From a virus (taxonomy: Duplodnaviria > Caudoviricetes), in IMG/VR virus record IMGVR_UViG_3300047551_002158: a DNA stretch of 64,000 nucleotides; one strand, 5' to 3'. Of this stretch, positions 2,634 through 21,216 are shown piece after piece (the first letter of the stretch is position 1; the number at the start of each line of letters is the position of its first letter). The notes beneath the pieces are model-generated. The model did not search any database. It was not told the DNA's origin and was given only the letters and a program-made list of their open reading frames with translations. The position numbers were made by a program, and so were the translations under genes.

Positions 2634-2833
2634 TGACTGACCTTACACAAAAACAAAAACAAATATTCTATGAAATTCCTGAACTTTTAGACCAAGTTGA
2701 TGCTCTTATGGAGTTTCATCCACTTCCTACTGCTGTATGGAGAGATATACGAAAATTGATGGTTCTTTCTTATGAAAAGGGGTATAGTAAAGGTGAATAT
2801 GATACTCATATGAAATATGCTGGAACTGACTAA
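2633..2833 (+). CDS. hypothetical protein
   Basis: 66-aa ORF, TGATG coupled; its stop overlaps a TAAATA element. Confidence 0.6.
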   Translation: MTDLTQKQKQIFYEIPELLDQVDALMEFHPLPTAVWRDIRKLMVLSYEKGYSKGEYDTHMKYAGTD

Positions 2834-2933
2834 ATAATAAGGTCTATAGGAACCGCAATTCTCTACGGACAGATTAGGTGCTTTCGGGCACCTTTTCTAT
2901 TATAAATACTAATGCGGTTTCTGTAGAATAACG
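2831..2933 (+). promoter_or_regulatory. endonuclease leader cassette, copy A (late promoter, hairpin, terminator, late promoter, antisense target)
   Basis: TAAATA 2831-2836; stem 2842-2849/2863-2870; terminator-like AGGTGC-TTTCGG-GCACCT-TTT 2876-2896; TATAAATA 2901-2908; 2844-2857 complementary to 2913-2926. Confidence 0.75.
2841..2896 (+). ncRNA. candidate ~55-nt antisense sRNA, copy A
   Basis: Lies between a late-promoter-like TAAATA and an intrinsic-terminator-like hairpin; 14 nt are antisense to the endonuclease mRNA leader. Transcription is inferred, not shown. Confidence 0.45.
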
Positions 2934-3875
2934 ATGACTTACCAAAGTCCAAGAATTTACATATACAAAATTACCTTTGAAGAAGTTCCATACTACTATT
3001 ATGGAGTTCATAAGGAAAAATACTTCAACGAAGAATACTGGGGTTCTCCTATAACAAACAAATGGTGCTGGGAACTTTATACAGCAAAGAAAAAAATACT
3101 TCAACTTTTTGATTTTACGGATGAAGGTTGGTTGAAGGCACAAGAAATTGAAGAAAGATTGATAAAACCATTTTTTAATACCGATAAATGGTGTCTAAAT
3201 GAAAGTTGTGGTGGTAAAGTATCTCTAAAAGTTTTGCGTGAAAGTGGAAATAAATGTTATGAACTTGGTTTGGGATTTCATTCACTAACCAAAGAGCAAA
3301 GAAGTGAAAATGGTAAAAGAAATGGTAAAATTTCTGGAAAAAAAGGAGGTAAAAAAGTATATGAACTTGGTATTGGAGTTCACGGAAGAACAAAAGAACA
3401 GATGAGTGAAGATGGGAAACAAGGAGGGAAAAAATCATACGAACTTAAAATAGGAATACACGGAATAACCAAAGAACAGATGGTTGAAAATGGTAGAAAG
3501 TGTGGAAATAGAACATATGAACTTGGAATTGCAATACACGGACAAAGCAAAGAAAAAATGAGAAAAAGAGAAACACATCCTATGAGTGGAAAAACTCATA
3601 GTGAAGAAACGAAAGAGAAGATGTGTAAATCTCATTTAGGAAAACCTGGAATTTGTGGTTTCAAAGGAAAAAATCATACAGAAGAAGCAAAACAAAAACT
3701 AAGAGAAGGTAGAGAAGTTAAATATTTTTCTGTAATAAGTCCTACTGGAGAAGTAATACATTCTAAAAATGCTAAGCAATTTTGTAGAGATAATAATTTA
3801 GATAAAGGACATTTTTCTCAAGTTTTGAACGGAAAACGGCCAGTTCATAAGGGATTTCGTCTCTATACTGGATAA
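2934..3875 (+). CDS. free-standing GIY-YIG (Seg-like) homing endonuclease
   Basis: N-terminal YIYKIT...YYYGVH...YWGS GIY-YIG-like motif; NUMOD3-like GKTHSEETKEKM and GKNHTEEAKQKL; C-terminal HTH-like DNA-binding module. Confidence 0.8.
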   Translation: MTYQSPRIYIYKITFEEVPYYYYGVHKEKYFNEEYWGSPITNKWCWELYTAKKKILQLFDFTDEGWLKAQEIEERLIKPFFNTDKWCLNESCGGKVSLKVLRESGNKCYELGLGFHSLTKEQRSENGKRNGKISGKKGGKKVYELGIGVHGRTKEQMSEDGKQGGKKSYELKIGIHGITKEQMVENGRKCGNRTYELGIAIHGQSKEKMRKRETHPMSGKTHSEETKEKMCKSHLGKPGICGFKGKNHTEEAKQKLREGREVKYFSVISPTGEVIHSKNAKQFCRDNNLDKGHFSQVLNGKRPVHKGFRLYTG

Positions 3876-3933
3876 GGACACTTCCCAAACTGGCACAAGG
3901 GCACTTGAACCCGGTGCCCTAATGCCCTATAAT
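3876..3933 (+). promoter_or_regulatory. sigma70-type early promoter with stem-loop over -35
   Basis: TTGAAC 3905-3910, 17-nt spacer, TATAAT 3928-3933; GGGCAC/GTGCCC inverted repeat; upstream AAACTGGCAC motif. Confidence 0.75.
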
Positions 3934-3958
3934 ACTAATATACACAAAGGAACTCTAA

Positions 3959-4972: not shown

Positions 4973-5297
4973 ATACATCTTCACGCATCTTATTCCCACT
5001 TGGTTTAGGTCATTTGGGGATAATTTCCGTATGTGGAGTGATTTGATGACTGGAAACTATGAACCTTATGTTCTTTTGAAGGATGATGATCCATTTGAGA
5101 CAACTTATGATTGGTTCTGGACCAGTATCAATCTGGATGAAACATACCCAAAGGAGTTTCTTGAAAGTCTGATACAAATGGCGGATGATGTAAAAACTGG
5201 TAAGGTCAAAACTTATCCACTAACACAAGAAATGTTTGATAGACTTGATGACCTTGTTGGTGATTTGATAGAGGAGAAAGACAATGGGGATGTTTGA
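4959..5297 (+). CDS. hypothetical protein
   Basis: 112-aa ORF. Confidence 0.7.
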   Translation: MTHLEYIFTHLIPTWFRSFGDNFRMWSDLMTGNYEPYVLLKDDDPFETTYDWFWTSINLDETYPKEFLESLIQMADDVKTGKVKTYPLTQEMFDRLDDLVGDLIEEKDNGDV

Positions 5298-5700
5298 CTA
5301 TGTAAGGTCTTCATATGATTTGGGACCTGACTTCACAAATGTAGAACTACAAACCAAAGATATTGAGGAGGGTTATAGTGGAACTATGACCCATTTTTGG
5401 ATTGACCCTGCTGGTTATTTGTGGTGTCCTGATTATAAAGGAACAAATACCTTTGAGATTATTGAAGAAGATGACCCAAGATATAATCCTAAGCATCTAT
5501 TCTTGAATTATGAATGGATATCCACTGGGAAAAAAGGTAAGTATAGGGTTCATCCTATTACAAAATACATATCCGTTTATCCATCAACTTGGGACGGTTC
5601 TTGGGAAGAATGGCCACGCTTGAAGTTACATTTCAAATACGGGAAACTTGTGGATTATGAAGACATTACTGGAAAAAGAATAAATAATAATATCTGTTAG
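5284..5700 (+). CDS. hypothetical phage protein
   Basis: 138-aa ORF with GAGG SD; its last codons run into the endonuclease leader cassette. Confidence 0.7.
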   Translation: MGMFDYVRSSYDLGPDFTNVELQTKDIEEGYSGTMTHFWIDPAGYLWCPDYKGTNTFEIIEEDDPRYNPKHLFLNYEWISTGKKGKYRVHPITKYISVYPSTWDGSWEEWPRLKLHFKYGKLVDYEDITGKRINNNIC

Positions 5701-5783
5701 GACGGCAATCTCTACAGATAAGATTAGGTGCTTTCGGGCACCTTTTCTGTTATAAATAGTGTTGCCGTCCAAACAGAATAGAA
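5681..5783 (+). promoter_or_regulatory. endonuclease leader cassette, copy B
   Basis: Same 103-nt layout as copy A; identical 28-nt core AGATTAGGTGCTTTCGGGCACCTTTTCT (5721-5748 = 2871-2898); TATAAATA 5751-5758; 5694-5708 complementary to 5762-5776. Confidence 0.75.
5691..5746 (+). ncRNA. candidate ~55-nt antisense sRNA, copy B
   Basis: Stem 5691-5700/5712-5720, loop GACGGCAATCT, terminator-like hairpin 5726-5746. Transcription is inferred. Confidence 0.45.
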
Positions 5784-6530
5784 ATGAACTACCTAAAGGT
5801 TTATTGTAACCTCATCAGGAAAGTAGAGAATAGAACTCCACCTGAAGGTTATACAGAAAAACATCACACATTTCCAAAAAGTATATTTGGAAAGAATAAC
5901 AGAGTTGTTGTGCTTACCGCAAGAGAACATTATGTTGCTCACGCATTATTAGAAAAAATTTATACTAAAAGATGTGGATTTGAAAATTGGAAAACAAAAA
6001 AGATGATATATGCTTTTTGGTTGATGAATAATCAGTCAAGAAAAGAACAAAAAAGATATAAAAATTCTGTTTTATACGAATTAAAAAAGATAAAATATTC
6101 TAAACAAATAAAAGGTAAAAATAATCCTTTTTATGGTAAAAAACACTCAAAAGAACTTATACACAAACGCAGTAGAACTTTTTCAATATTAAGTCCAAAT
6201 AATCAAATAATTACTGGTATAAATGTTGAAGAATTTTGTAGAAAAAATAATTTAACACCAACACATATTTTAAGTGTAATAAATGGAAAACAAAAATCTC
6301 ATAAAGGATGGAGAAACATTGAAGATTATGGAAAAAATAAAACTGAACTTTCTAAAGGTAAATATTTTTCTATATTAAGTCCTGATGGTAATATCATAAT
6401 TGAAAAAAATTTAAATCAATTTTGCAGAGAAAATAACTTAAACAGTAATTGTTTAAGAGATGTAATAAAAGGAAGACAAAAATCACATAAAGGTTACTGT
6501 GCTGTACCAGATGTTCAACTGTCCATATAA
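5784..6530 (+). CDS. free-standing HNH (MobE-like) homing endonuclease
   Basis: GYTEKHHTFPKS...LTAREHYVAHALL is the Mob-type HNH signature; NPFYGKKHS NUMOD3-like motif; two tandem C-terminal HTH-like modules. Confidence 0.8.
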   Translation: MNYLKVYCNLIRKVENRTPPEGYTEKHHTFPKSIFGKNNRVVVLTAREHYVAHALLEKIYTKRCGFENWKTKKMIYAFWLMNNQSRKEQKRYKNSVLYELKKIKYSKQIKGKNNPFYGKKHSKELIHKRSRTFSILSPNNQIITGINVEEFCRKNNLTPTHILSVINGKQKSHKGWRNIEDYGKNKTELSKGKYFSILSPDGNIIIEKNLNQFCRENNLNSNCLRDVIKGRQKSHKGYCAVPDVQLSI

Positions 6531-6584
6531 TGAGGACAAAGTTTTAATTTATGCTATAATAAAGGACTATAAGACCTTCACCCG

Positions 6585-9237: not shown

Positions 9238-9402
9238 ATGACATTTTCAAAGAAAAATAACAGGGAACTCACACAAACAGAATGGAATGAGATGGTTGCA
9301 CTTAAAAATGCAATTGATTATGATATAACTCAAGTACATCCAGAGAAGATGGAAGAGTTTACTGAATATCTTGTGCGTAGTCTTAAGGAACGTGGTGGTT
9401 GA
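9238..9402 (+). CDS. small hypothetical protein
   Basis: 54-aa ORF read by eye, preceded by TAAATA (9199-9204) and a hairpin TGTTAG-GATA-CTAACA (9206-9221). Confidence 0.55.
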   Translation: MTFSKKNNRELTQTEWNEMVALKNAIDYDITQVHPEKMEEFTEYLVRSLKERGG

Positions 9403-9406
9403 ATAA

Positions 9407-9437
9407 AACTTTGGGGCCTTGAAAGTGTCTCTATAGT
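9407..9437 (+). repeat. 31-bp cassette/promoter repeat, copy 1
   Basis: AACTTTGGGGCCTTGAAAGTGTCTCTATAGT. Confidence 0.9.
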
Positions 9438-9455
9438 GTAAGCAACAAACTTGAA

Positions 9456-9872
9456 ATGGGCACCCGAGCACGAATCGGTCTTGAACTCTCTGACGGTTCT
9501 ATTCTTTCTGCATATCACCATTGGGATGGTTATCCCGAATGGTTGGGTCGTATTCTGAACACTCACTATAATTCACGTTCTCTTGCTGAAGAACTGATTG
9601 GTGGTGGTGATATGAGTTCTTGCTGGACTGATTCACGTTGGGATGATAGTGCTGTAAAAGGTGTTTATGGACCCGAATACTACTCTCAACGTGGCGAAGA
9701 TCATCCTCCTCGCCTTGATGCTGACTTGTGTGAGTATCTTCTTCCTGATAATAGCGAAGAATATGCCTATATCTTCCGCAATGGTGAATGGGTATGCTAC
9801 AATATGCACCAGTTTGATGATAGCAAACTACCCGAAATCGTTGAAATTCCCTCTGCTGCTCTTGCTGTTTGA
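9456..9872 (+). CDS. hypothetical phage protein
   Basis: 138-aa ORF (MGTRARIG...YHHWDGYPEWLG) directly after repeat 1. Confidence 0.8.
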   Translation: MGTRARIGLELSDGSILSAYHHWDGYPEWLGRILNTHYNSRSLAEELIGGGDMSSCWTDSRWDDSAVKGVYGPEYYSQRGEDHPPRLDADLCEYLLPDNSEEYAYIFRNGEWVCYNMHQFDDSKLPEIVEIPSAALAV

Positions 9873-9874
9873 TT

Positions 9875-10033
9875 ATGACTTCTAAAACGACTTCCTACAT
9901 CTTTCTTGCTTTCATTGCTATTCTTGGATGGAACGCATTTCTAATCAAACGCGATGATGCAATGTATAAAGAATATGATCGTCGTCAAGCGATAGAAAAT
10001 ATTAAGAAACCACCAAGTAATCTAATCAAATGA
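9875..10033 (+). CDS. small membrane protein
   Basis: 52-aa ORF read by eye, one hydrophobic segment. Confidence 0.55.
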   Translation: MTSKTTSYIFLAFIAILGWNAFLIKRDDAMYKEYDRRQAIENIKKPPSNLIK

Positions 10034-10120
10034 GTTTGGGACTTGCTATCTTCATTTATCTTATGTTGGTTGCATTGGTCTCACTTCTTATGATATACTA
10101 CTACAAAGTGATACGACCGA

Positions 10121-10291
10121 ATGATGAGCGACGATTTAACACCTGAAGAAAGAAAGATTATCTTTCACGCTGTAAAGTACTGGCAGATGCACAAAGCATC
10201 ACTCAACGGAAAAGATTATCAGATTTGTGAGAACATTTTGAACCGTTGGTTTGATAGTGTTTATACTCAGAGAAAGGAGCAAGCAAGGTGA
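10121..10291 (+). CDS. small hypothetical protein
   Basis: 56-aa ORF read by eye (MMSDDLTPEERKIIF). Confidence 0.55.
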   Translation: MMSDDLTPEERKIIFHAVKYWQMHKASLNGKDYQICENILNRWFDSVYTQRKEQAR

Positions 10292-10469
10292 TTGAATACA
10301 CAAAACGACAAAAAGACTTACAAATGGAACGACAAATGGAAGATTTCTTTGCATTTGTTGAAGAACTTGCATCTAAGTATGAAGTCACTTGTGACTATAT
10401 TCTTGAAGAGTTCATCATTGACTAAACCTCACTTAACCATTAAACTATAGGAGTACATTACAAAAACAA

Positions 10470-10703
10470 ATGAAGTATCTGTATATTGTTGATTTCTGGG
10501 TTCCTTTTCCTTCTTCGGAATATGGTGGACTTATCAATGTTATCGCTGAAGATGATATTGAGTGCCACGACATTCTGCGAGACAGTGAAATCTGTTACGA
10601 TTCTACCTACGACAATAAGATTATGGAGCGTGTAGTTGCTGCTCCTCGTTTTGCTCTGGTAGATGAAGAAGAGTCCCGTATTGTTGAATCATTCACCACT
10701 TGA
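10470..10703 (+). CDS. small hypothetical protein
   Basis: 77-aa ORF. Confidence 0.7.
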   Translation: MKYLYIVDFWVPFPSSEYGGLINVIAEDDIECHDILRDSEICYDSTYDNKIMERVVAAPRFALVDEEESRIVESFTT

Positions 10704-10705
10704 TT

Positions 10706-10873
10706 ATGACTCAAAATGTTTCTCACACCAACAAAATGGTGTTTGATCTCAAGCAAATGTATCAGGGTAGGATCTCACAACTACAAGAGAAAATTACAGA
10801 ACAACAAAAAGAAATCTTGCAACTTCAGGAGCAAATCAAACTCCTCACTTATGAAAAGTTTTATGATTGCTGA
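10706..10873 (+). CDS. small coiled-coil protein
   Basis: 55-aa ORF read by eye. Confidence 0.55.
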   Translation: MTQNVSHTNKMVFDLKQMYQGRISQLQEKITEQQKEILQLQEQIKLLTYEKFYDC

Positions 10874-11172
10874 TGAAACTCTCAGTTGATTTAATCCCCA
10901 AGTTTAAGCACAAAGCACCAAAAGGTTACACCTATGAAGTTGAAGAGTTCAAACGTAATATCTTTTCTATTTGGTTGCGTTGCCACCGCAAGTTTGATTA
11001 CAATATGGGCAAACCTACCAGAACCATCTGGGGATTTTATGATTATAAAAAATGCAGATTCTATAGTCCTGTAAATAGTTCAACGGTTGGTAAAGAAGTA
11101 GATTTTGAGGACACAAGAGACTACACTTCAATGCCTATTAAATATCTTGGAGTTGAGGCATTTTTTGTATGA
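10873..11172 (+). CDS. hypothetical protein
   Basis: Track ORF 10867..11172; TGATG-coupled ATG at 10873. Confidence 0.7.
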   Translation: MKLSVDLIPKFKHKAPKGYTYEVEEFKRNIFSIWLRCHRKFDYNMGKPTRTIWGFYDYKKCRFYSPVNSSTVGKEVDFEDTRDYTSMPIKYLGVEAFFV

Positions 11173-11345
11173 TTTTTACAGAGGGAACTGAAGTCATTTA
11201 CAAAAGTATTTCTGGTGTGATTGCATTTACCTCTGAACAGTATGTTTCAATTTTGGTAAGTAAAGGTAGGCATCGTGCTCAAGATGTGAGAGTAGTTGTA
11301 TATCATTCAGACTTTAAGAATATTGTATTAGCAGACGGAAAATGA
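11169..11345 (+). CDS. small hypothetical protein
   Basis: 58-aa ORF read by eye, ATGA-coupled at both ends. Confidence 0.55.
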   Translation: MIFTEGTEVIYKSISGVIAFTSEQYVSILVSKGRHRAQDVRVVVYHSDFKNIVLADGK

Positions 11346-11605
11346 AACAGAAAACAATGTGGCGATGGTGGGCAAAGGCGATCGGTGAGAAAGCAAGTAA
11401 ATGCGATAAGGAATCGGATAAGATTGCTCTTATCCGAACTTTTATTTTTGCGACCTATTTGGTTACCAATGCTTTCATTGTGGCGGGTGTAGTCAGACAC
11501 TGGAATGATAAAACAAAAGTAGAAGTTTATATTGATGGTGTAAGTGCTCAACAATATCAAACTCCACCAGCACGAAAGGTAAATAGGGTTCTTGAGTTTG
11601 AGTGA
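11342..11605 (+). CDS. small membrane protein
   Basis: 87-aa ORF with one transmembrane-like segment (WRWWAKAIGEKA...). Confidence 0.7.
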   Translation: MKQKTMWRWWAKAIGEKASKCDKESDKIALIRTFIFATYLVTNAFIVAGVVRHWNDKTKVEVYIDGVSAQQYQTPPARKVNRVLEFE

Positions 11606-11632
11606 AACTAAATAATCAAAAAGACAAGAAAG

Positions 11633-12046
11633 ATGATTACCTTTAGAGAGTTTCTGTTAGTTTGTGAGAAGAAAACTTCTACACCATCTCACGCAGTTCC
11701 AGGAACTTATAATGAAGTAGATGGGGTGAAAACTTATACTCTTGCTCCATATGAAGGACCATCTGGACCTCTTAAAACTGAAAAGAAAGTCAAGAAAGTA
11801 TTAGATAAGCAAGGTGGAATTGGTGGTGGTGCTATCAAGAAAGCAAAGAAGAAAGCAGATAAGATTAAGAAACTTGAGGAGCAAGATCCTCATATGACGC
11901 CAACACCTTTTAATGTAGCAAAAGCACAAGCACAAGCAAAAGGTGGAGTTGTACATAGAAGACACGTTCATCAGGAGATTGGTGCTGAGGCAAGAGCACA
12001 GCAATCTGCAAAAAATGCAAGGATGAAAGCAATTCTGTCTCGTTAA
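11633..12046 (+). CDS. basic late protein, candidate internal head protein
   Basis: Preceded by CTAAATA (11608-11614); N-terminus MITFREFLLVCE resembles the T4 capsid-targeting sequence. Confidence 0.65.
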   Translation: MITFREFLLVCEKKTSTPSHAVPGTYNEVDGVKTYTLAPYEGPSGPLKTEKKVKKVLDKQGGIGGGAIKKAKKKADKIKKLEEQDPHMTPTPFNVAKAQAQAKGGVVHRRHVHQEIGAEARAQQSAKNARMKAILSR

Positions 12047-12050
12047 TCAA

Positions 12051-12081
12051 AACTCTGGGGCCTTGAAAATGTCCCTATAAT
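12051..12081 (+). repeat. 31-bp repeat, copy 2
   Basis: AACTCTGGGGCCTTGAAAATGTCCCTATAAT. Confidence 0.9.
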
Positions 12082-12101
12082 GTAAGCGTTCATTCCCAAA
12101 G

Positions 12102-12239
12102 ATGGATCACTACGACGACATCCAAGTTGAGGAGTTTTATCCTGCTGATTTTGTTGAAGAAGTTTATGAAGAACTCTTTGATGAAAATGATGATGATAAA
12201 TCCTTCCAACGCCTGATTAACTCCAACTACGATTTCTGA
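12102..12239 (+). CDS. small acidic protein
   Basis: 45-aa ORF read by eye after repeat 2. Confidence 0.5.
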   Translation: MDHYDDIQVEEFYPADFVEEVYEELFDENDDDKSFQRLINSNYDF

Positions 12240-12241
12240 TT

Positions 12242-12448
12242 ATGACTGACACTGTTAACGTCCTGCCTCATCTTAACGAACTCAAAGAGATTTGGCGCAA
12301 GCAAGATTTCACCTTTACAAAACAACAACGTGAAGAGTATGATATGCTTCTCAATGCTCGCCGCGAACGTGTAAAGTATTTTTACGATAACGATATGGTC
12401 TGCAAAATTAGTAAATCTGCTCAAGATAAACTGAAAGACGCTGACTGA
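12242..12448 (+). CDS. small hypothetical protein
   Basis: 68-aa ORF. Confidence 0.7.
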   Translation: MTDTVNVLPHLNELKEIWRKQDFTFTKQQREEYDMLLNARRERVKYFYDNDMVCKISKSAQDKLKDAD

Positions 12449-12484
12449 AATATAAATAAACAAGAAGCGTTTATTTAACTCACG

Positions 12485-13090
12485 ATGCGTACATTTCAGG
12501 AGTTTGTTTTGATTGCTGAAGCATCATATGATGCTGATGTAATGAAGTCTGCACAAATCCGCAAGACTGGTGAAGGCGGACGTATTGGTGCTCAACGCAA
12601 GAAAACTGCTCCTGAAAAACGCAGGATGGCTCAAGCAAAACCTGGCGAAGAAAGAAGACCAAGCGAATACAAACCACGCAAAGATATTGGTACTCAACGC
12701 CAAAGAAGTGAGCGTGAGCAACAACCAGAACAAGAACGTGGATCTGCAAGAGAAAGACAACTAGCCGCAGCAAAAGAAGAAAGAAGAAAGGCAGCACTTG
12801 CAAGAAGAGCAGCAAGAACTGGTGGTGCAGAACCAGCAACAGAAAAACCAAAAGCAAAAGAAGTATCAAAGACTGCATCTAAACTTCTCAAGAAGAAGAA
12901 AACTGAAGTAGATTTGAGACCTGCCGATCAACCAAAGAGAGCAGTTGTCGGTATGTCAAGAGAGCAAAGAAAAGATATTACAAGAAGAGGTCATAGAAAA
13001 CTTGAGAAACTTGTGAGACAATCTGAAGCAGAAAAGCAAGGTAAGAGACCAGAGGAAGTAAAACTCAAGCACGACTATCGCCCCAAGTAA
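12485..13090 (+). CDS. highly basic late protein, candidate internal head protein
   Basis: TATAAATA at 12451-12458; N-terminus MRTFQEFVLIAE; K/R/E/A-rich body. Confidence 0.7.
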   Translation: MRTFQEFVLIAEASYDADVMKSAQIRKTGEGGRIGAQRKKTAPEKRRMAQAKPGEERRPSEYKPRKDIGTQRQRSEREQQPEQERGSARERQLAAAKEERRKAALARRAARTGGAEPATEKPKAKEVSKTASKLLKKKKTEVDLRPADQPKRAVVGMSREQRKDITRRGHRKLEKLVRQSEAEKQGKRPEEVKLKHDYRPK

Positions 13091-13094
13091 TCTT

Positions 13095-13125
13095 AACTCT
13101 GGGGCCTTGAAAGTGTCCCTATAGT
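13095..13125 (+). repeat. 31-bp repeat, copy 3
   Basis: AACTCTGGGGCCTTGAAAGTGTCCCTATAGT. Confidence 0.9.
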
Positions 13126-13142
13126 ATAGACACCGCTTCATT

Positions 13143-13334
13143 ATGGACCGCATCGAAATCCAACGCAAACTCTATGATGCTCGCAATGAGTATCTGAAAG
13201 CAAAGAAATCTGTAGAGTTTTGGACGCGTGAGATTGCTTTCCTGAAAGAGTGTGAAAATGCCTTGAACAAACCCTCTTTGTTTGAGGAACTCTTTGGGGA
13301 TACTCCTATCGCTGAAGAAGTTTACGGAGGTTGA
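13143..13334 (+). CDS. small hypothetical protein
   Basis: 63-aa ORF after repeat 3. Confidence 0.7.
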   Translation: MDRIEIQRKLYDARNEYLKAKKSVEFWTREIAFLKECENALNKPSLFEELFGDTPIAEEVYGG

Positions 13335-13359
13335 CTTTAACTTCCAGACATCTTATTAT
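13331..13359 (+). promoter_or_regulatory. sigma70-like promoter
   Basis: TTGACT, 17 nt, TATTAT. Confidence 0.5.
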
Positions 13360-13379
13360 AGTAAAAGAAACTGATTATT

Positions 13380-13694
13380 ATGGCAACTTGGAGAGCAGAA
13401 GTATTTGTTAATTCTCAAGTCGGTAGGATTACTACTGAAGTTGAGGCAGCAACATTTGGCGGTGCAAAACAACAAATCTATGCAAAGCACGGTGATGTTC
13501 AACAAATCACAAACCTAAGAGAAGTTAGGTCTGGTGGTGGTGGTTCTTCATTCAGTTCTGGAGATGGTGAAGGACTTGTATGGTTACTGGGCATTGGACT
13601 TGTTCTTTATGCTCTCGTAACTTACTGGTATATTGCTATTCCTATCGGGATCGTCTTGCTTATTCTCATTGGTATGGGTATGAGCGATGACTGA
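13380..13694 (+). CDS. membrane protein
   Basis: 104 aa; Gly/Ser linker followed by a long hydrophobic C-terminus. Confidence 0.7.
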   Translation: MATWRAEVFVNSQVGRITTEVEAATFGGAKQQIYAKHGDVQQITNLREVRSGGGGSSFSSGDGEGLVWLLGIGLVLYALVTYWYIAIPIGIVLLILIGMGMSDD

Positions 13695-13725
13695 AACTCT
13701 GGGGCCTTGAAATTGTCCTTATAAT
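13695..13725 (+). repeat. 31-bp repeat, copy 4
   Basis: AACTCTGGGGCCTTGAAATTGTCCTTATAAT. Confidence 0.9.
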
Positions 13726-13730
13726 ATACG

Positions 13731-14972
13731 ATGAACCAAATGCAAATCCAACTCCGTCCTCATCAAGAACGCGCTGTTGCTGCTATGCAAAAGCACAACA
13801 AAGGGCAACTAATTAAACCTACTGGAGCGGGAAAAACCCTGACTATGATCTATGATTGTCTGCGCGAGTTGCAGTCAGAAACTCCCCAGACTATTGTTGT
13901 TGTTGCTCCTCGTATTCTGCTTGCTGAGCAACTCTCTGCTGAGTTTCTGGAGTTTATCACCAACGCTGCTGTGTTTCATATTCACAGTGGCGAAACTCAT
14001 CACGAAAGTTCTACTCGCCCTGGTATCATTCGCCAGTGGATCGAGAACAATCACTCCCGTCACAAGTTGATTATCACAACCTATCACTCCCTGTCTCGCC
14101 TTGAGCGTACTGGAGTTGATGTGGATACGATTTACTTTGACGAAGCACATAACAGTGTTCAGCGTCACTTTTTCCCTGCAACTGAGCACTTTGCTGCTAA
14201 TGCACGACGCTGCTATTTCTTCACTGCAACGCCAAAGCATAGCGTCACTGTAGGTAAACCTGGGATGAATATGCCTGAGGTTTATGGTCAGGTGATCTGC
14301 AAAGTTCCTGCTCCTGAACTTGTCGAAGGTGGTTACATTGTGCCCCCTAAAGTTATCGTCAAGCAACTGCCGATGGTGAAGGGTAAGCAGACCAACTTCG
14401 ACCGTGACGCAGAGAACCTGCTGGAAACGATTGATGAGAACAATGTCGGCAAGATCCTGATCTGTGCTAAGGCAACCAAGCAAATCGTTGCTCTTGTGTC
14501 TGAAACTGATTTCTGTGACGAACTGGAACAGCGCGGTTATTCTTGGATGTTCATTACTGCTAAGACGGGTGCAGTGATTGATGGTAAGAAAGTCAATCGT
14601 GAGGTGTTCTTTGATACTCTCAGTGCCTGGGGTAAGGATAACTCTAAGAAGTTTGTTGTTCTACATCACAGCATCCTCGCAGAAGGTATCAATGTGAGCG
14701 GACTTGAGGCAGTGTTGTTTATGCGTAATATGGACTACATTGGCATCAGTCAGACTATCGGACGCTGCATCCGTTTGCATCACGATGATGCTAAGAAACT
14801 GCGTGATGGTGCTATTCAACCTGGCAACCTCAGTCAATATACCAAATCGTTCGGTCTGGTTTGTATTCCCGTGTACTCTCAGGTTGGTATTGCTACTGCC
14901 CGCAGTGTTCAGGCAGTTGTTGATACTGTCTTTGAGAAGGGAGAGGCAGCGGTGAGCGTGGTTCGCAGGTGA
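13731..14972 (+). CDS. superfamily 2 DExH helicase (ResIII-like)
   Basis: Walker A PTGAGKT, DEAH, FTATP, LAEGINV and QTIGRCIR motifs. Confidence 0.9.
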   Translation: MNQMQIQLRPHQERAVAAMQKHNKGQLIKPTGAGKTLTMIYDCLRELQSETPQTIVVVAPRILLAEQLSAEFLEFITNAAVFHIHSGETHHESSTRPGIIRQWIENNHSRHKLIITTYHSLSRLERTGVDVDTIYFDEAHNSVQRHFFPATEHFAANARRCYFFTATPKHSVTVGKPGMNMPEVYGQVICKVPAPELVEGGYIVPPKVIVKQLPMVKGKQTNFDRDAENLLETIDENNVGKILICAKATKQIVALVSETDFCDELEQRGYSWMFITAKTGAVIDGKKVNREVFFDTLSAWGKDNSKKFVVLHHSILAEGINVSGLEAVLFMRNMDYIGISQTIGRCIRLHHDDAKKLRDGAIQPGNLSQYTKSFGLVCIPVYSQVGIATARSVQAVVDTVFEKGEAAVSVVRR

Positions 14973-15084
14973 GTCTCAATGAGATCCCTGTTCCCATCAG
15001 GGGTCAAAACCTGATTTTTCTTTAATTCTACCTGAAGGGTGCCATAGGTCATCCGTCGCAAAGAAATCACCGATTTTTATCAAA

Positions 15085-15612
15085 ATGACAATTTTGCCAT
15101 ATATTGGGTCTGTAATTAACCTTGGAAATTCGTTTTCTCAAGCAACTCGCCCAAAGAATGTTGGGCAACTCAGTGAACTAATTCAGATTTTTCGTGATTC
15201 AGACTGTGAACATAGTATAGGTGGTTGGGAACAATTCTATGATGAAAAAATTGGAAAATGTAAAATAGAAGACGCATCTGATAAGATTTGGAATTACGTT
15301 CAGCGTATAAAAGAGAATCTGAATAGATTAACCAAGGAAGATGTGTATGCTTGGACCAAGGATCTCATCATCGACAAAACATTTTCTGGATTACAACTTC
15401 AACTTGACATTCTTGAAATGGTGTGCGATAATGGAGATTATCGTCTTGCCAATTCTGAAGAAGAAGCAAAGGGAATTGACGGATTTGTAAATGGTGAACC
15501 TGTATCAATCAAACCACATACATACAAAAAAACCATTCAATCTGGAAAGGAATCAATCCAATATCGCATAATCTATTACAAGCAAACAAAGAACGGTCTG
15601 GTTATCACATGA
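15085..15612 (+). CDS. putative type II restriction endonuclease, MjaI-like PD-(D/E)xK
   Basis: TRPKNVGQLSELI N-terminal pattern recalled from MjaI-family enzymes; GIDGFVNGEPVSIKP catalytic-like motif; ATGA-coupled to a methyltransferase. Confidence 0.6.
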   Translation: MTILPYIGSVINLGNSFSQATRPKNVGQLSELIQIFRDSDCEHSIGGWEQFYDEKIGKCKIEDASDKIWNYVQRIKENLNRLTKEDVYAWTKDLIIDKTFSGLQLQLDILEMVCDNGDYRLANSEEEAKGIDGFVNGEPVSIKPHTYKKTIQSGKESIQYRIIYYKQTKNGLVIT

Positions 15613-16358
15613 AACAAATAATTTGTTCAGATGCTCTATCTACATTGCAAGAAATAGAAAGTGGTAGTGTAGATTTGGTTCTTACATCACCTCCATATAA
15701 TTTTGATATGAAGTATGATGAGCATAATGATAAAAAAAATTCTACAGATTATCTTACCACACTCGTCACAATCTTTGATGAGTGTATTCGTGTGTTAAAG
15801 TCTGGTGGAAGACTGATAATCAATATTCAACCAAATTATAAAGAATACTATCCATCACATCATGCTATCACAACTGCAATGATTGAGCGTGGATTGATTT
15901 GGAGAGGTGAAATAGTTTGGCTAAAGAACAATCTTAAGAAATTGACTGCTTGGGGTAGTTGGATGTCCCCATCCTGTCCTTACTTGTCATACCCATTTGA
16001 GTTTATCGAGGTCTTTAGTAAGGATACGTTAAAGCATATTGGCGACAAAGAAAACATTGATCTCACAAAAGATGAGTTCATTGAATATGTGAATGGTCAC
16101 TGGACGATAGCACCAGAAACAAGAATGAAAAAGTTTAATCATCCGGCAATGTTTCCAGAGGAATTGGCAAAACGCTGCATCAAATTGTTCTCATACAAGA
16201 ATGACTTAGTTCTTGATCCTTTCAATGGTGCAGGTACGACTACCTATGTTGCAAATTTGCTTGGGAGAAGGTATATTGGAATTGACATAAGTGAAACGTA
16301 TTGTGAGATTGCAAAAGAAAGAATCTCATCCACTAATCTACTGGAAAAGTTTTTTTAA
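15609..16358 (+). CDS. beta-class amino (N4-C/N6-A) DNA methyltransferase
   Basis: Motif IV TSPPY precedes HPAMFP and motif I VLDPFNGAGTT. Confidence 0.92.
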   Translation: MKQIICSDALSTLQEIESGSVDLVLTSPPYNFDMKYDEHNDKKNSTDYLTTLVTIFDECIRVLKSGGRLIINIQPNYKEYYPSHHAITTAMIERGLIWRGEIVWLKNNLKKLTAWGSWMSPSCPYLSYPFEFIEVFSKDTLKHIGDKENIDLTKDEFIEYVNGHWTIAPETRMKKFNHPAMFPEELAKRCIKLFSYKNDLVLDPFNGAGTTTYVANLLGRRYIGIDISETYCEIAKERISSTNLLEKFF

Positions 16359-16360
16359 TT

Positions 16361-16534
16361 ATGGAAGCATTTACAATGTATAAGGATGAATACGCTGCAA
16401 TTCCTTATGGTAAGCAGTATCTCATTATTCACAATGGGCAGCAACTTGAGCGACTGTGTAAGACTGAGGCAACAGCACGAAAGTATATCACAGACCTCAA
16501 GAAAGGTAAGAGCGTAGCACAACTTCCAATGTGA
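16361..16534 (+). CDS. small hypothetical protein
   Basis: 57-aa ORF read by eye (MEAFTMYKDEYAAIPYG). Confidence 0.6.
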   Translation: MEAFTMYKDEYAAIPYGKQYLIIHNGQQLERLCKTEATARKYITDLKKGKSVAQLPM

Positions 16535-16538
16535 TACT

Positions 16539-16570
16539 AACATCTGGGGCCTTGAAAGTGTCCATATAGT
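16539..16570 (+). repeat. 31-bp repeat, copy 5 (variant)
   Basis: AACATCTGGGGCCTTGAAAGTGTCCATATAGT. Confidence 0.88.
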
Positions 16571-16608
16571 GTGAGGACACATCCTCACAGAAGTTTCTAA
16601 CACAAACT

Positions 16609-16878
16609 ATGACTTTTTACTGGAAGTTCGTTGATACTCTCATCAAAAACATCGCTACTATCAGTGCCGTTGTTGTTGGTGTAGTTCAATTCCTTGTTCG
16701 TTCGTTCAATGAGAACAATGGTCGTGAGAAAGTTCGTGCTGCAACGCTTCAGTTTCTGAAGTTTGTTGATACTCTGATTGAGTTTGGTAAAGCACAACTT
16801 TCTCCCGTTGAAGTAGTTGAGCAACCTCAAGTTGTACCTGCTACTGTTACCAAAACCCGCAAGCGTCGTGCCGCTTGA
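16609..16878 (+). CDS. small hypothetical protein
   Basis: 89-aa ORF with a hydrophobic segment and a basic tail. Confidence 0.65.
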   Translation: MTFYWKFVDTLIKNIATISAVVVGVVQFLVRSFNENNGREKVRAATLQFLKFVDTLIEFGKAQLSPVEVVEQPQVVPATVTKTRKRRAA

Positions 16879-16890
16879 TGAAGTGTCACA

Positions 16891-16916
16891 AGAGGACTTG
16901 TAAAGTCCTCTTTTTT
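16891..16916 (+). terminator. hairpin with T-tract, overlapping a probable promoter
   Basis: AGAGGACT-TGTAA-AGTCCTCT followed by TTTTT. Confidence 0.7.
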
Positions 16917-16932
16917 ATGTCATTATAAGATT

Positions 16933-17826
16933 ATGCAAAACAAACACATCGAACACCCTGAAGATTCCATCCTGACTGGTGATCTATCAGTTCTGGATTG
17001 GTTTACTGCTCCTTCGCTGGTTTCTGTCAAGATTGATGGAAGTCCCAGTTTAGTGTGGGGTCGCAATCCTGCCAATGGTAAGTTCTTTGTGGGCACTAAA
17101 TCTGTGTTCAACAAAGTGAAGATTAAGATCAATCATTCTCATGAAGAAATTGATGCAAACCATCAAGGTAAAGTAGCATCTATTCTTCACGCTTGTTTCG
17201 ATAGTCTTCCCCGCACACAATTCATCTATCAAGGTGATTTTATCGGGTTTGGTGGGAGTGATACTTATCGTCCCAACACGATTACCTATAAGTTTCCTGA
17301 AGTAATTGAGCAAAGTGTTATTATTGCTCCTCACACTGAGTACATTTGTGAGGATGATCTTCGCAATGCTATCGCACAACCTATCAGCAAACAGTTTGTT
17401 GATACTTATGATGTGAAATGGGTGCAACCTGATGCAGAAATCTGTCCGTATCTGGATGACATTGAGGACTTCTGCAAGTTTGCAAAGCAAATGAGCACAC
17501 TTTGTGAGTTTGTGAGTGATAAGCAAGCAGCAGAACTCAAAAAAATCATCAATTCTTACATTCGTGAGGGTAAGGAGGTGGATGAGCACGAAATTGCAGA
17601 AAATTATGATGTTGACATCAACCTGATGCGTTTGTGGAAGTTGGTTGAATCTATCAAGATGGATTTGTTCTGCTTCATTGAGTGTGACACTGAGATTTCG
17701 TGTGAAATTGGTGGAGAATTGAGCGATCACGAAGGTTATGTGATGCACAATGAGTTTGGTTCTTACAAGATCGTAAACCGTGAAGAGTTTAGCAGACTGA
17801 ACTTCACTCTTGAAAAGAGTTGGTAA
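16933..17826 (+). CDS. hypothetical protein with ligase-like nucleotidyltransferase motifs
   Basis: VKIDGSP (motif I-like), YQGDF, EGYV and YKIV in the order of RNA/DNA ligase motifs. Confidence 0.55.
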   Translation: MQNKHIEHPEDSILTGDLSVLDWFTAPSLVSVKIDGSPSLVWGRNPANGKFFVGTKSVFNKVKIKINHSHEEIDANHQGKVASILHACFDSLPRTQFIYQGDFIGFGGSDTYRPNTITYKFPEVIEQSVIIAPHTEYICEDDLRNAIAQPISKQFVDTYDVKWVQPDAEICPYLDDIEDFCKFAKQMSTLCEFVSDKQAAELKKIINSYIREGKEVDEHEIAENYDVDINLMRLWKLVESIKMDLFCFIECDTEISCEIGGELSDHEGYVMHNEFGSYKIVNREEFSRLNFTLEKSW

Positions 17827-17855
17827 CTCTGGGGCCTTGAAAGTGTCCCTATAGT
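17825..17855 (+). repeat. 31-bp repeat, copy 6
   Basis: Consensus copy, followed by ATGAGCACAACCACAATG. Confidence 0.9.
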
Positions 17856-18152
17856 ATGAGCACAACCACAATGAGTCAATTTATCTGCATTACTTTCGGT
17901 CCTTCTGATGATGTTGTCCGCGATGGTTGGTGGAATCGTAAACAGCGTTTTGATGCTGTAGATGATGCCAAACAGTGTGGACGCCAACAACTCTCACAAC
18001 CTGGAACTTTTGGATATGTTGTCATTGAAGAAGGTGAAGATTGGTGGGAAGTTGTTGATGAACTCGGTGCTCCTGCTCACGCTGTGAGTATCTCTTGCAA
18101 CCGACTTGGTACATTTAAGGTAGAACCTGCTCCTGAACTTATTCTGGTTTAA
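17856..18152 (+). CDS. hypothetical protein
   Basis: 98-aa ORF; the start may be the second ATG (17871). Confidence 0.7.
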   Translation: MSTTTMSQFICITFGPSDDVVRDGWWNRKQRFDAVDDAKQCGRQQLSQPGTFGYVVIEEGEDWWEVVDELGAPAHAVSISCNRLGTFKVEPAPELILV

Positions 18153-18159
18153 TAGTAAA

Positions 18160-18390
18160 ATGACTGTAACTTTTTCTAAAGAGTTCATCAACGATTTCAT
18201 CAGTTATGTGATGTCTTTCTATGGTCCTGATGGCATCTATCCTATGGGCGCAAATCGTACCATAGTGCGTAAAGCAACCAACGATGTTATTCGTATTTCT
18301 AAGATCCAAGGTAGAGAGTTTCGTGGTGATAGTATTGACCGCGAATTTGTGCGAGACCTTTTGATTGACAAATATAATCTGTCCGTCTGA
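18160..18390 (+). CDS. small hypothetical protein
   Basis: 76-aa ORF ending immediately before repeat 7. Confidence 0.7.
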   Translation: MTVTFSKEFINDFISYVMSFYGPDGIYPMGANRTIVRKATNDVIRISKIQGREFRGDSIDREFVRDLLIDKYNLSV

Positions 18391-18421
18391 AACTCTGGGG
18401 CCTTGAAAGTGTCCTTATAGT
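18391..18421 (+). repeat. 31-bp repeat, copy 7
   Basis: AACTCTGGGGCCTTGAAAGTGTCCTTATAGT, followed by ATGAGCACAACCACAATG. Confidence 0.9.
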
Positions 18422-18880
18422 ATGAGCACAACCACAATGCAAGCACAAGCACAACAAACTATCACAGATTCGGTGCTGAAGCATACTCAAATGCTGATTG
18501 AAGCACTGAAAGATAACTATCGTCAGTATGCTATTCGTGGACATCAGCGAGCGATTGAGAACTTCAACTATACTTACGACACTACCGATTCGGTTCAGTC
18601 TCAGTATCATCAGCAGAAGATTGATGAACTCAAGAATGGTGATTGTCCCATTGATTATGTGATTGAAACGGGTAAAAAGTATCACAAAGTTATCTTTGTT
18701 GATGGTGGAGGTTCCCGCTCTGTTCATTGTTTCATTGATAAGAATACTGGAGAATTGTATAAGAGTTCCAGTTGGAAATCTCCCGCCAAAGGTGTTCGCT
18801 ACGATTTGCGTTTGATTAAAGACCGTGAATGGTTGTTTGAGAACGCAGACTGGAGCGGCGGGTACACTTACGCTCGCTGA
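18422..18880 (+). CDS. hypothetical phage protein
   Basis: 152-aa ORF (GKKYHKV...SVHCFIDK.TGELYK.SSWKSPAKGVRYDL). Confidence 0.8.
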   Translation: MSTTTMQAQAQQTITDSVLKHTQMLIEALKDNYRQYAIRGHQRAIENFNYTYDTTDSVQSQYHQQKIDELKNGDCPIDYVIETGKKYHKVIFVDGGGSRSVHCFIDKNTGELYKSSSWKSPAKGVRYDLRLIKDREWLFENADWSGGYTYAR

Positions 18881-18882
18881 TT

Positions 18883-19077
18883 ATGACTATTCTCAACCGC
18901 ATCAATCTCACGCAAGATGAAGAGAACTGTATTCTGTTCTTTCTCAACGATGCGCGAGGACTTACACACTTAAATAATAAAGAACAGTGGTATCCAGTTA
19001 TTGATACCATTCTCCAAAAGTATCTCAAGAAAAAGTATTCTAACCTCACTGAAGCACAACCTTTCCAAACACTATGA
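18883..19077 (+). CDS. small hypothetical protein
   Basis: 64-aa ORF. Confidence 0.6.
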   Translation: MTILNRINLTQDEENCILFFLNDARGLTHLNNKEQWYPVIDTILQKYLKKKYSNLTEAQPFQTL

Positions 19078-19214
19078 AATACGAAGTTAAACTCTATCAA
19101 GGCGGCAAAGTCTTCACTGAAGAAGTGTATGCCAGCACACCCAAAGATGCAAGGGAAACTGCATTGATTAGGAATCCAACTTGTAAGGTCGTTGGTGTTA
19201 ATGCAAAGTTTTGA
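19074..19214 (+). CDS. small hypothetical protein
   Basis: 46-aa ORF read by eye (MKYEVKLYQGGKVFTEEV), ATGA-coupled. Confidence 0.6.
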   Translation: MKYEVKLYQGGKVFTEEVYASTPKDARETALIRNPTCKVVGVNAKF

Positions 19215-19222
19215 GTGATAGC

Positions 19223-19253
19223 AACTCTGGGGCCTTGAAAGTGTCCCTATAGT
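19223..19253 (+). repeat. 31-bp repeat, copy 8
   Basis: Consensus copy, ATG directly adjacent. Confidence 0.9.
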
Positions 19254-19424
19254 ATGACTGAAACTTTCACCGTCCGCTTTGACTCCAACGCTCTGGATTC
19301 TCCAGAGTACATTGGACCTTTCTACTCTGAAGATGACGCACAAAACTATTGCGATGCCCGCAATGATTCGTTATCACTCTCAGGTGTTCCTTCCTGGGTT
19401 GCTTGTTACTCTGTTGTTGATTGA
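19254..19424 (+). CDS. small hypothetical protein
   Basis: 56-aa ORF read by eye (MTETFTVRFDS). Confidence 0.55.
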   Translation: MTETFTVRFDSNALDSPEYIGPFYSEDDAQNYCDARNDSLSLSGVPSWVACYSVVD

Positions 19425-19727
19425 TGATGACACAAACTCAATGGGATGACATTTACACTTCCCTCTACGAAGTGTATGAGAAAGTATCACTGAAGGATGA
19501 GCAAACCCGCTCTACTATTGGTGATGCACTTGACCGATTGATTGACATTAACCCTCGCAACTCTGTGAAGTGATTATGACTTTAACAACCACACAAATTG
19601 ATGCTCTAGTTGCCCTGATTGAGTATCATCAAGATGAAGGATGGTATAACATGATTGAAACTACGGGTCTTCTTGCCTATGAAGGTGGAGAACTTCGTAG
19701 AGAACTTCTCAAAATGCGTGAAGAGGT

Positions 19728-19931
19728 TTGATGATGACTAACGAACAAATCCTACAACTTGCTGAAAATTACAAGTTCTGTTGTCGTGATGAAGATGACA
19801 TTAAAGACTGGAAAGTAATTCCTTCTCTTATTCTTGAGTTTGCCCGAGCAATGTATGATGAGGGTTATGATAGAGGATACGATGAAGGTTACTCAAATTG
19901 TTCTCTTGACATGGGAGATGAGAATGTATGA
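19728..19931 (+). CDS. small hypothetical protein
   Basis: 67-aa ORF with a YDEGY repeat. Confidence 0.6.
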   Translation: MMMTNEQILQLAENYKFCCRDEDDIKDWKVIPSLILEFARAMYDEGYDRGYDEGYSNCSLDMGDENV

Positions 19932-20191
19932 CTTACTCTAACCTCTCCAAGATTCGTCCTAAACTTCGCACACAAGGTAACATCACTGGCAACTTTGGTC
20001 GCCCAAAATCTAAAGCGGGTTCGCCTCTTAATGAACTTGGAATGACTGCTGCTGATGTAGTCAAATGCCCCACACAAGATGAGTATTTGAATCGTTTGTA
20101 TTATGCGTTTGACAATACCACAGACGACAAACTCAAAAAGTTCATTTATCAGGAGATTCGTAAGATACACATTCAACGCGGAACTTGGTAA
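19928..20191 (+). CDS. small hypothetical protein
   Basis: 87-aa ORF (MTYSNLSKIRPKLRTQG). Confidence 0.7.
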   Translation: MTYSNLSKIRPKLRTQGNITGNFGRPKSKAGSPLNELGMTAADVVKCPTQDEYLNRLYYAFDNTTDDKLKKFIYQEIRKIHIQRGTW

Positions 20192-20199
20192 GTATCAGT

Positions 20200-20230
20200 A
20201 ACTCTGGGGCCTTGAAAGTGTCCCTATAGT
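20200..20230 (+). repeat. 31-bp repeat, copy 9
   Basis: Consensus copy, ATG directly adjacent. Confidence 0.9.
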
Positions 20231-20467
20231 ATGAGCAACACAATCGTTTCCGAAATCTACTCCTACCATACGAATTGGAAGGAAGGTAAAGTCAATCAAA
20301 TGTGGATTGAGCAAATCACTGATAAAGAGTGCGACAATCTCTACGTTGCTGTTGCACACAATCCTCGCAATGGTTCGACAATGGAGATGAGCAATCCCCG
20401 CACATCTTACTCCGAAACTCTAAACTGGGTTCGCGGTTATTGCGGCACTTTCTGTATTCTCAACTGA
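20231..20467 (+). CDS. small hypothetical protein
   Basis: 78-aa ORF. Confidence 0.65.
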   Translation: MSNTIVSEIYSYHTNWKEGKVNQMWIEQITDKECDNLYVAVAHNPRNGSTMEMSNPRTSYSETLNWVRGYCGTFCILN

Positions 20468-20600
20468 TGCGAATTGCACTTCTGTTTGCTACACTTTTCT
20501 TCGGTATTCATCTTGGCTCTAATGCACTTGCAACTGTGAGTGAGAAACAAGAACAACGTGCCGAACAATTCTGTAAAGTTAATCCTGATTTCTGCTGATT

Positions 20601-20837: not shown

Positions 20838-21006
20838 TGAAACATTCCAACACAGTTCGTATCATCGACAAACTCAATCTGTTCCCTGAAACTAATGGTA
20901 AAGCACGATACATTTCCGTCAAGACATACAATCACGCGATGGAGATTGTAGATGAACAGAACAAACTTGGCAACGTAGCTACACTCATAAATTGGTAAAC
21001 ATCAGT

Positions 21007-21037
21007 AACTCTGGGGCCTTGAAAGTGTCCCTATAGT
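21007..21037 (+). repeat. 31-bp repeat, copy 10
   Basis: Consensus copy, ATG directly adjacent. Confidence 0.9.
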
Positions 21038-21211: not shown

Positions 21212-21216
21212 TAGAA

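Follow-up and report, generated by a model that had tools for sequence, protein, structure and literature searches.

Homing endonucleases are selfish nucleases that phages must tightly restrain, and the examples of restraint known from T4 are few and each seemingly idiosyncratic. In the T4 family (I-TevI, I-TevII, I-TevIII, segB and Aeh1 mobE) the leader is masked by RNA structure, and a late promoter nested within the mask frees the late transcripts from its 5' arm (PMC2988022). In cyanophage-like DNA, hairpins in the 5' untranslated region (5'-UTR) have been reported in 15 of 16 'fractured gene' loci, with the late box TATAAATA in ten; two conserved, mutually complementary motifs were described there, and one locus without an endonuclease keeps the hairpin (Dassa et al. 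2009; PMC2677866). The present study is centred on a stretch of 64,000 nt of viral DNA (Caudoviricetes; IMG/VR record IMGVR_UViG_3300047551_002158), hereafter the window, in which two homing-endonuclease genes, A and B, are each preceded by a cassette of about 100 nt. The explanation put forward is that this cassette would be a portable control unit of the free-standing homing-endonuclease genes of freshwater T4-like cyanophages, with three layers: i) insulation and masking of the gene in cis, ii) a short RNA made from a late promoter of the cassette, and iii) repression of the cognate nuclease mRNA by that RNA in trans. As a whole this explanation is leaned towards with some reserve, and its layers are of very different strength.

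Both copies of the cassette follow the same order: TAAATA, a hairpin (P1), a 28-nt terminator core, TATAAATA, a leader complementary to the 5' arm and loop of P1, and the ATG. A first-pass annotation of the window had described the two leaders as identical in length and layout, with an identical core and with P1 antisense to the leader in both, and every detail of this description was borne out. TAAATA is located at 2831-2836 and 5681-5686 and the ATG at 2934 and 5784, which gives 103 nt in both copies; the 28-nt core at 2871-2898 is the same as that at 5721-5748, and there is no third copy in the window (0 expected by chance). Checked by hand, the pairing of the P1 5' arm and loop with the leader comprises 14 bp, two of them G.U, in copy A (2844-2857 with 2913-2926), and 14 of 15 positions, with one A.A mismatch, in copy B (5694-5708 with 5762-5776). 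The four compensatory double changes between the copies (A-T>G-C, A-T>T-A, A-T>G-C and C-G>G-C) are correct and stand in the same register, the long-range duplex ends 7 nt 5' of the ATG, and P1 and the long-range helix are mutually exclusive because both use nt 2843-2852. Folded at minimum free energy, each 115-nt stretch adopts the long-range helix with the terminator hairpin inside it (-36.1 and -40.9 kcal/mol; z values of -5.8 and -6.8), and 0 of 200 shuffles were as good. The 5' part of the cassette folded alone gives P1 and the terminator, and the predicted late mRNAs of both copies are unstructured on folding.

Relatives of the cassette were collected from two sides. An exact scan with 23 nt of the core against the uncultured viral contigs of IMG/VR returned 58 loci with 51 distinct elements. 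The second set consisted of relatives of nuclease B fetched by protein similarity, independently of the element; the same layout was found in 61 of 66 distinct upstream regions of these HNH homologues, with terminator hairpins and arms that are often quite different. A covariance model trained on 75 of the elements recognised 120 copies in 94 stretches of uncultured phage contigs, up to six of them on one 14-kb locus. Besides, six copies are present in the cultured freshwater Synechococcus phage S-SRM01 (MW015081), at about 17.9, 48.4, 51.2, 55.9, 62.4 and 192.4 kb, each 5' of a different endonuclease gene. Classified by their heads, the genes 3' of the cassette copies are MobE-like HNH (55), SegE-like (27) and GIY-YIG-like in groups of 17, 7 and 6, with two singletons, and the S-SRM01 cassettes add a zinc-ribbon HNH/EndoVII-like gene. 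Judging from the genes that follow it, the cassette is a portable module ahead of at least five nuclease groups. Among cultured phages, blastn found the element in S-SRM01 only; the genome paper of this phage makes no mention of it, and no cultured phage was found that has both the cassette and published start-site data. In Rfam, there is no match at gathering score in the window, with chance-level matches only (E 3.9 and 5.1) around copy A.

Some members of the family deserve a separate description. The contig with six same-strand cassettes (L002, IMGVR_UViG_3300007735_000887; 14.4 kb) carries a different arm pair in each of them, and its copy at 6-115 is devoid of the upstream box. Two orphan 5' modules (L013:2798-2911 and L018:1652-1749) consist of the box, P1 and the identical terminator core, without leader or nuclease; a degenerate box and then an unrelated gene for a membrane-protein-like product come after them, and their arm fits the leader type of a third locus, L016. 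These orphans could be deletion scars or free-standing RNAs. Finally, an insertion of 10-11 nt (TATAAACTCT-like) is located between the terminator and TATAAATA in ten elements (L006, L011, L012, L014, L019, L020, L031, L036, L050 and L053); it makes the loop of the long-range helix longer and resembles a degraded second copy of the late-promoter box.

The first-pass annotation had asked for a covariance model and a covariation check in homologues, and the pairing between loop and leader does covary across the family. In the MAFFT alignment, which is unbiased with respect to the structure, the long-range helix is 95.5% paired and 11 of its 15 pairs show double changes, compared with 34-53% pairing when the partner strand is slid. 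In the model alignment, helix and terminator together have 22 pairs; every one of them covaries, and pairing amounts to 95.2% (27-47% when slid), with double changes at 15 of 15 pairs of the helix; across alignments the helix is 95-98% paired. The terminator contributes 7 of 7 covarying pairs with 97.8% of cells paired in the model alignment, and the outer stem of P1 covaries as well. Within the long-range helix G.U occurs 86 times and A.C 5 times, which indicates selection on the sense-strand RNA and not on the DNA. The terminator hairpins, of which 63 are distinct (mean -10.9 kcal/mol), have UUCG (61) or GAAA (15) loops in 76 of 114 copies and at least five T in the next 8 nt in 81 of 114. 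With a GC-rich stem, a short loop and a U tract, the predicted terminator has the make-up of an intrinsic (Rho-independent) one.

These data make the first layer, insulation and masking in cis, very probable. The terminator would end transcription coming from the upstream early operon, and any read-through RNA would fold into the long-range helix of 13-14 bp (about -22 kcal/mol, against about -6 kcal/mol for P1), formed by the upstream arm with the 5' two-thirds of the nuclease leader and extending to the margin of the purine-rich ribosome-binding region. The late promoter TATAAATA (P_L2), whose full 8-mer is present in 109 of 114 copies, is located in the loop of this helix, 4 nt 5' of the 3' arm. 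Late transcripts would therefore begin at the 3' arm, without the 5' arm; they cannot form the helix and would be free for translation.

The second layer depends on the upstream box (P_L1). Of 120 copies, 116 have the first TAAATA; the box pattern is broken in one copy cut by a contig end, in one truly without the first box, and in two orphans that have the first and lack the second. The rival explanation that survives best is a cassette acting only in cis, in which the terminator and the long-range mask do everything, the box is a stop or edge signal, P1 holds the 5' arm until the leader is made, and the short RNA is a by-product. This has to be taken seriously, although it is judged doubtful. 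In the proposal of Dassa et al. (2009), the stop codon of the upstream gene and a transcription stop are provided by the 5' end of these elements (PMC2677866), and in 60 of 101 copies the upstream open reading frame (ORF) does end within TAAATAA, so that the box is its stop codon. Nevertheless, a stop role predicts TAAnTAA or any stop codon; instead, the hexamer TAAATA is invariant, including its fourth base, whereas 20 of 114 copies deviate at the seventh base, the one needed for a second TAA. The base 5' of the first box is A (86) or C (28) and no other, exactly the restriction seen at P_L2, and both boxes are then followed by nTAAT with a purine at the sixth position. In about 40% of the copies, copy B of the window included, the box is not a stop codon. 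It keeps a fixed spacing of 5-6 nt to the base of P1, and the similarity among copies starts exactly at the box.

The motif is otherwise avoided in the window, which also disagrees with a simple stop signal. ATAAATA is rarer than chance (18 found and 29.6 expected), 16 of the 18 copies are on the + strand and nearly all of these are just 5' of ORFs, so that stray late-promoter boxes appear to be avoided by the phage. Related to this, ATAAATA boxes are found 14-42 nt 5' of the baseplate, gp13/15-like, sheath and portal genes, and the boxes of the window agree with NATAAATA, the late promoter of cyanomyoviruses (PMC2984593). From its base pattern and position, the first box seems to behave as a late promoter and not as a stop signal, and it is reasonably probable that it works as such and that a short RNA is made from it.

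This RNA, driven by P_L1 from 6 nt 5' of the weak P1, would have about 55 nt and would consist of a flush 5' hairpin and the terminator. Measured from the sixth base past the box to the terminator, its predicted length has a median of 55 nt; 111 of 114 copies form exactly two hairpins, and 93 of 114 begin with a paired nucleotide. A flush 5' hairpin together with a terminator is the usual build of a stable small RNA, which is what the predicted transcript would be. The first-pass annotation had put forward a separately promoted and terminated RNA of this size, and the claim stands in part: the promoter-like box is invariant, P1 begins at the predicted start and the terminator covaries, while the RNA itself is a prediction.

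The segment complementary to the leader lies in the loop and 5' arm of P1 (mean -6.3 kcal/mol) and has its partner in the initial 13-14 nt of the predicted late mRNA. That each copy would be matched to its own mRNA had also been suggested, and the pairing energies agree with it: cognate duplexes have -22.4 +/- 2.0 kcal/mol and non-cognate ones -9.4 +/- 4.3 kcal/mol. For the two copies of the window the values are -23.2 (A:A), -23.4 (B:B), -9.3 (A:B) and -11.3 kcal/mol (B:A), without cross-pairing, and cognate pairs associate with a net -15.2 kcal/mol, the cross pairs of the window with a net -1.9 to -3.9 kcal/mol. Among 114 copies there are 68 distinct leader 14-mers, and when other targets of the predicted RNAs were sought in the window, the cognate leader was the only close complement. 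In the third layer, the loop and 5' arm of P1 in the short RNA would pair with the very first nucleotides of the late mRNA for the nuclease, and translation would be damped copy by copy; new specificity variants would arise by coupled changes in the RNA and its target. Repression of the cognate mRNA in trans is a tentative proposal. More tentative still is its full form, in which every cassette would encode its own late antisense RNA of about 55 nt as a copy-specific trans repressor, in at least 68 specificity variants and in addition to the cis mask.

Several observations weigh against a small RNA acting in trans and, at some points, against the mask. Firstly, a variant cassette found at five loci (L083, L097, L104, L105 and L116) lacks a correctly placed upstream box and a U-tract terminator, and it keeps the local hairpin with the 5' arm and the long-range helix around TATAAATA. 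It is located about 120 nt 5' of an HNH start at 3001, its local hairpin is longer, with a 10-nt 5' arm in the apex, and its two folds are close in energy. Since both helices persist without box and terminator, neither a P1-like hairpin nor the long-range helix needs a small RNA, which speaks for a cassette acting only in cis. Secondly, nothing points to selection for orthogonal copies within a genome: copies of the same genome are not more orthogonal than random pairs, 8.5% and 11.1%, respectively, pairing at -15 kcal/mol or below. No arm is common to two copies on one contig, about one identical pair being expected by chance in a rough estimate from arm frequencies. Related to this, a hypervariability of the arms was considered and discarded: it is seen in the core-matched set only, as an ascertainment effect, and in the subset retrieved by protein similarity arms and terminator vary to the same extent. 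Thirdly, the conserved T that opens TATAAATA is missing from P_L1, whose strength as a promoter may be low. Besides, the established cis mechanism, with masked read-through RNA and unmasked late RNA, accounts in full for the long-range helix taken alone; it had already been put forward for endonuclease genes of environmental cyanophages (PMC2677866), and the T4 precedents need no small RNA (PMC2988022). Even the mask has a weak point: of the AGAAUAG/AGAGUAG purine stretch, the helix, which ends at -8, takes in no more than the first 1-2 nt; a strong Shine-Dalgarno (SD) sequence is absent, and as the helix reaches just the edge of a weak ribosome-binding site, translational masking has to be inferred. 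Finally, 14 RNA libraries contain the element, as contigs from which starts, ends and strand cannot be read and which may derive from DNA. In the four libraries inspected the element is present together with nuclease A-like sequence, and the contig breaks at 2831, 2842 and the shared core are as expected for the branch points of a repeat.

Two further rivals survive less well than a cassette acting only in cis. Transcriptional interference, in which polymerases from P_L1 halt at the U tract, 2-7 nt before TATAAATA, and occlude P_L2, thereby lowering transcription of the nuclease, with the short RNA being functionless, would suit the position of the terminator stem, whose distance to TATAAATA is 7 nt in 57 copies and 4-6 nt in 30, and the fact that P_L1 and P_L2 are of the same late class; but it is improbable, as it leaves unexplained both the complementarity of the loop and 5' arm to the leader in the RNA from P_L1 and the covariation of P1. 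The least probable reading is an inverted repeat acting at the DNA level (protein-binding palindrome, cruciform, recombination or homing signal), since, although the arms are an inverted repeat flanking a promoter and I-TevI binds an operator over its own late promoter (PMC2988022), it was rejected on the excess of G.U over A.C, which makes sense only for sense-strand RNA, and the same arms occur with different nucleases (the arm of copy A with HNH and GIY-YIG genes) and do not track nuclease specificity.

Table 1. Features of the two cassettes, the nuclease genes and the promoter-like sites that follow them (positions in the window).
Feature	Position	Strand	Remarks
Copy A, P_L1, late-promoter-like box CTAAATA	2830..2836	+	TAA doubles as stop codon of ORF 2633-2833
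Copy A, hairpin P1	2842..2870	+	Begins at predicted P_L1 start, sixth nt past the box; fold, outer-stem covariation
Copy A, 5' arm of long-range helix (P1 5' arm and loop)	2843..2857	+	Pairing, fold, covariation
Copy A, intrinsic terminator	2876..2898	+	7-bp stem, UUCG loop, UUUUCU tract
Copy A, predicted RNA of ~55 nt, P_L1 to terminator	2842..2898	+	Inferred from sequence
Copy A, late promoter P_L2 (TATAAATA)	2901..2908	+	Within loop of long-range helix
Copy A, 3' arm of long-range helix	2913..2927	+	First ~13 nt of predicted late mRNA, start about 2914
Homing endonuclease A, 313 amino acids	2934..3875	+	SegE/GIY-YIG-like head, NUMOD3 repeats, I-HmuI NUMOD-like tail
Sigma-70-like promoter TTGAAC-17-TATAAT	3905..3933	+	Overlaps GGGCAC/GTGCCC hairpin (region 3890-3945), after endonuclease A
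Copy B, P_L1 box ATAAATA	5680..5686	+	Inside ORF 5284-5700, not its stop codon
Copy B, hairpin P1	5692..5719	+	Fold
Copy B, 5' arm of long-range helix	5694..5708	+	Pairing, fold
Copy B, intrinsic terminator	5726..5748	+	Core same as copy A
Copy B, late promoter P_L2 (TATAAATA)	5751..5758	+	Sequence
Copy B, 3' arm of long-range helix	5762..5776	+	5' end of predicted late mRNA, start about 5764
Homing endonuclease B, 248 amino acids	5784..6530	+	MobE-like HNH head, NUMOD3, two I-HmuI NUMOD-like modules
Sigma-70-like promoter, extended -10, TGnTATAAT	6533..6560	+	Immediately after endonuclease B

The two genes had been taken for members of unrelated nuclease families. This is correct for their catalytic heads, which differ, and not for their C-terminal parts, since NUMOD3 and I-HmuI NUMOD-like modules are common to both. 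The head of endonuclease A looks SegE/GIY-YIG-like only through language-model and structure look-alikes in a protein atlas; its catalytic domain has no match in Pfam, nor in PDB sequence and profile searches, and an AlphaFold model built from 17 close homologues was unusable (predicted local distance difference test, pLDDT, of 41). The head of endonuclease B is a MobE-like HNH (phrog_655, E 5e-32), with about 30% identity to Aeh1 MobE. Four tandem 78-nt repeats in the gene of nuclease A (3233-3568) encode the NUMOD3 motifs. An I-HmuI NUMOD-like module of about 86 nt is found once in A (3715-3800) and twice in B (6169-6254 and 6355-6440) with 66-74% DNA identity, which suggests an exchange of modules between both genes. 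A variant of nuclease A, about 97% identical over 2842-3561 of the window and with another upstream context, is present in the riverine metatranscriptome libraries X16 and X18. Its assembly depth there is 10-20 times that of the neighbouring window genes, which may reflect a more abundant relative or DNA carry-over.

The window is a segment of T4-like cyanomyovirus type, with baseplate, gp13/15-like, terminase, sheath and portal genes, and the host genome of both cassettes is that of a freshwater cyanophage. Small same-strand ORFs, in runs, precede each cassette. A pattern scan of the window detected a terminator-like site at both cassettes and a sigma-70-like promoter directly 3' of both nuclease genes; with a terminator at the cassette and such a promoter after the gene, each nuclease gene would be an island under late promoters cut out of an early operon. 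Both sigma-70-like promoters would restart early transcription of the downstream genes, and they may be travelling companions of the cassette. ORF 5284-5700 extends 20 nt into the cassette of copy B, through TAAATA, and stops at a TAG in the 5' arm of P1; the cassette may have replaced the original end of this ORF. Besides, 12 same-strand copies of a unit of about 38 nt, made up of a GGGGC/GTCCC hairpin and a TTGAAA-N17-TATAGT promoter-like pair, are distributed over 9389-23336, each at the head of a small gene cassette. This unit looks like the promoter-early/stem-loop (PeSL) units of T4-type phages (PMC2839356, PMC4122927), and a PeSL-like unit also follows each of the two nuclease genes.

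The mask is already known, and its dual-promoter, terminator-enclosing and portable form with a probable small RNA is undescribed as far as the literature was searched. The additions made here are a covariation test on 120 copies, the analysis of the box as promoter or stop, the asymmetry between G.U and A.C, the variant without box and terminator, and a cultured pair of host and phage. One covarying module that precedes at least five groups of nucleases, in more than 100 copies from uncultured freshwater phage contigs and also in a cultured cyanophage, is a natural candidate for a new RNA family. If the box drives a small RNA, mobile nucleases of a lytic virus would have an antisense governor that is built in and specific to each copy, and the family would offer a ready set of dozens of orthogonal pairs of RNA and leader. 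With S-SRM01 and its host Synechococcus sp. KCZYC6, the small-RNA reading is directly testable.

The closest parallels to such an RNA come from systems in which a selfish or toxic gene is held down by an adjacent terminator-ended small RNA, as in RNA-OUT/RNA-IN of IS10, tisB/istR-1 and zorO/orzO. In IS10 and in the type I toxin-antitoxin pairs, a hairpin loop pairs with the 5' end or 5'-UTR of the mRNA over about 14-20 nt, and the geometry of the proposed RNA of about 55 nt resembles that of RNA-OUT/RNA-IN. Unlike IS10 and the type I antitoxins, the predicted RNA would share the strand of its target and precede it in tandem, with a complementarity that derives from an inverted repeat; its promoter would be a late one of a lytic phage, and its sequence would have a second role in cis.

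Within T4-like cyanophages, an RNA antisense to a homing-endonuclease gene is already represented by CfrI of S-PM2, which, in the account of Millard et al. (2010) cited in PMC2984593, has about 225 nt, lies on the opposite strand and overlaps the endonuclease gene and psbA. According to that account, CfrI shares with the predicted RNA the kind of target and of phage, and is unrelated to the cassette in sequence and layout. PeSL (PMC2839356, PMC4122927) is similar in that it, too, joins a terminator to a promoter in one short conserved unit and moves together with accessory genes of hyperplastic regions. However, its promoter is of the early sigma-70 type and it has no arm complementary to a leader, whereas the cassette combines late promoters with an RNA mask; that the cassette itself is a PeSL was ruled out, both of its boxes being of the late type.

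The element of Dassa et al. (2009), likened here by its published description, is probably the same as the cassette or its sister. It was read as a translational hairpin only, whereas the upstream box, P1, the small RNA and the covariation analysis belong to the present reading. As for the masks of T4 itself, the cassette resembles them in the helix between upstream sequence and leader, in the late promoter inside it, in the position of the gene among early genes and in the terminators that limit read-in, and nuclease B is a homologue of MobE. Unlike them, its helix is long-range and encloses a complete intrinsic terminator; this helix ends at -8 and leaves the SD and the AUG uncovered; it is preceded by a second late-promoter box and by the weak alternative hairpin P1; and the cassette as a whole is portable, being found with at least five groups of nucleases.

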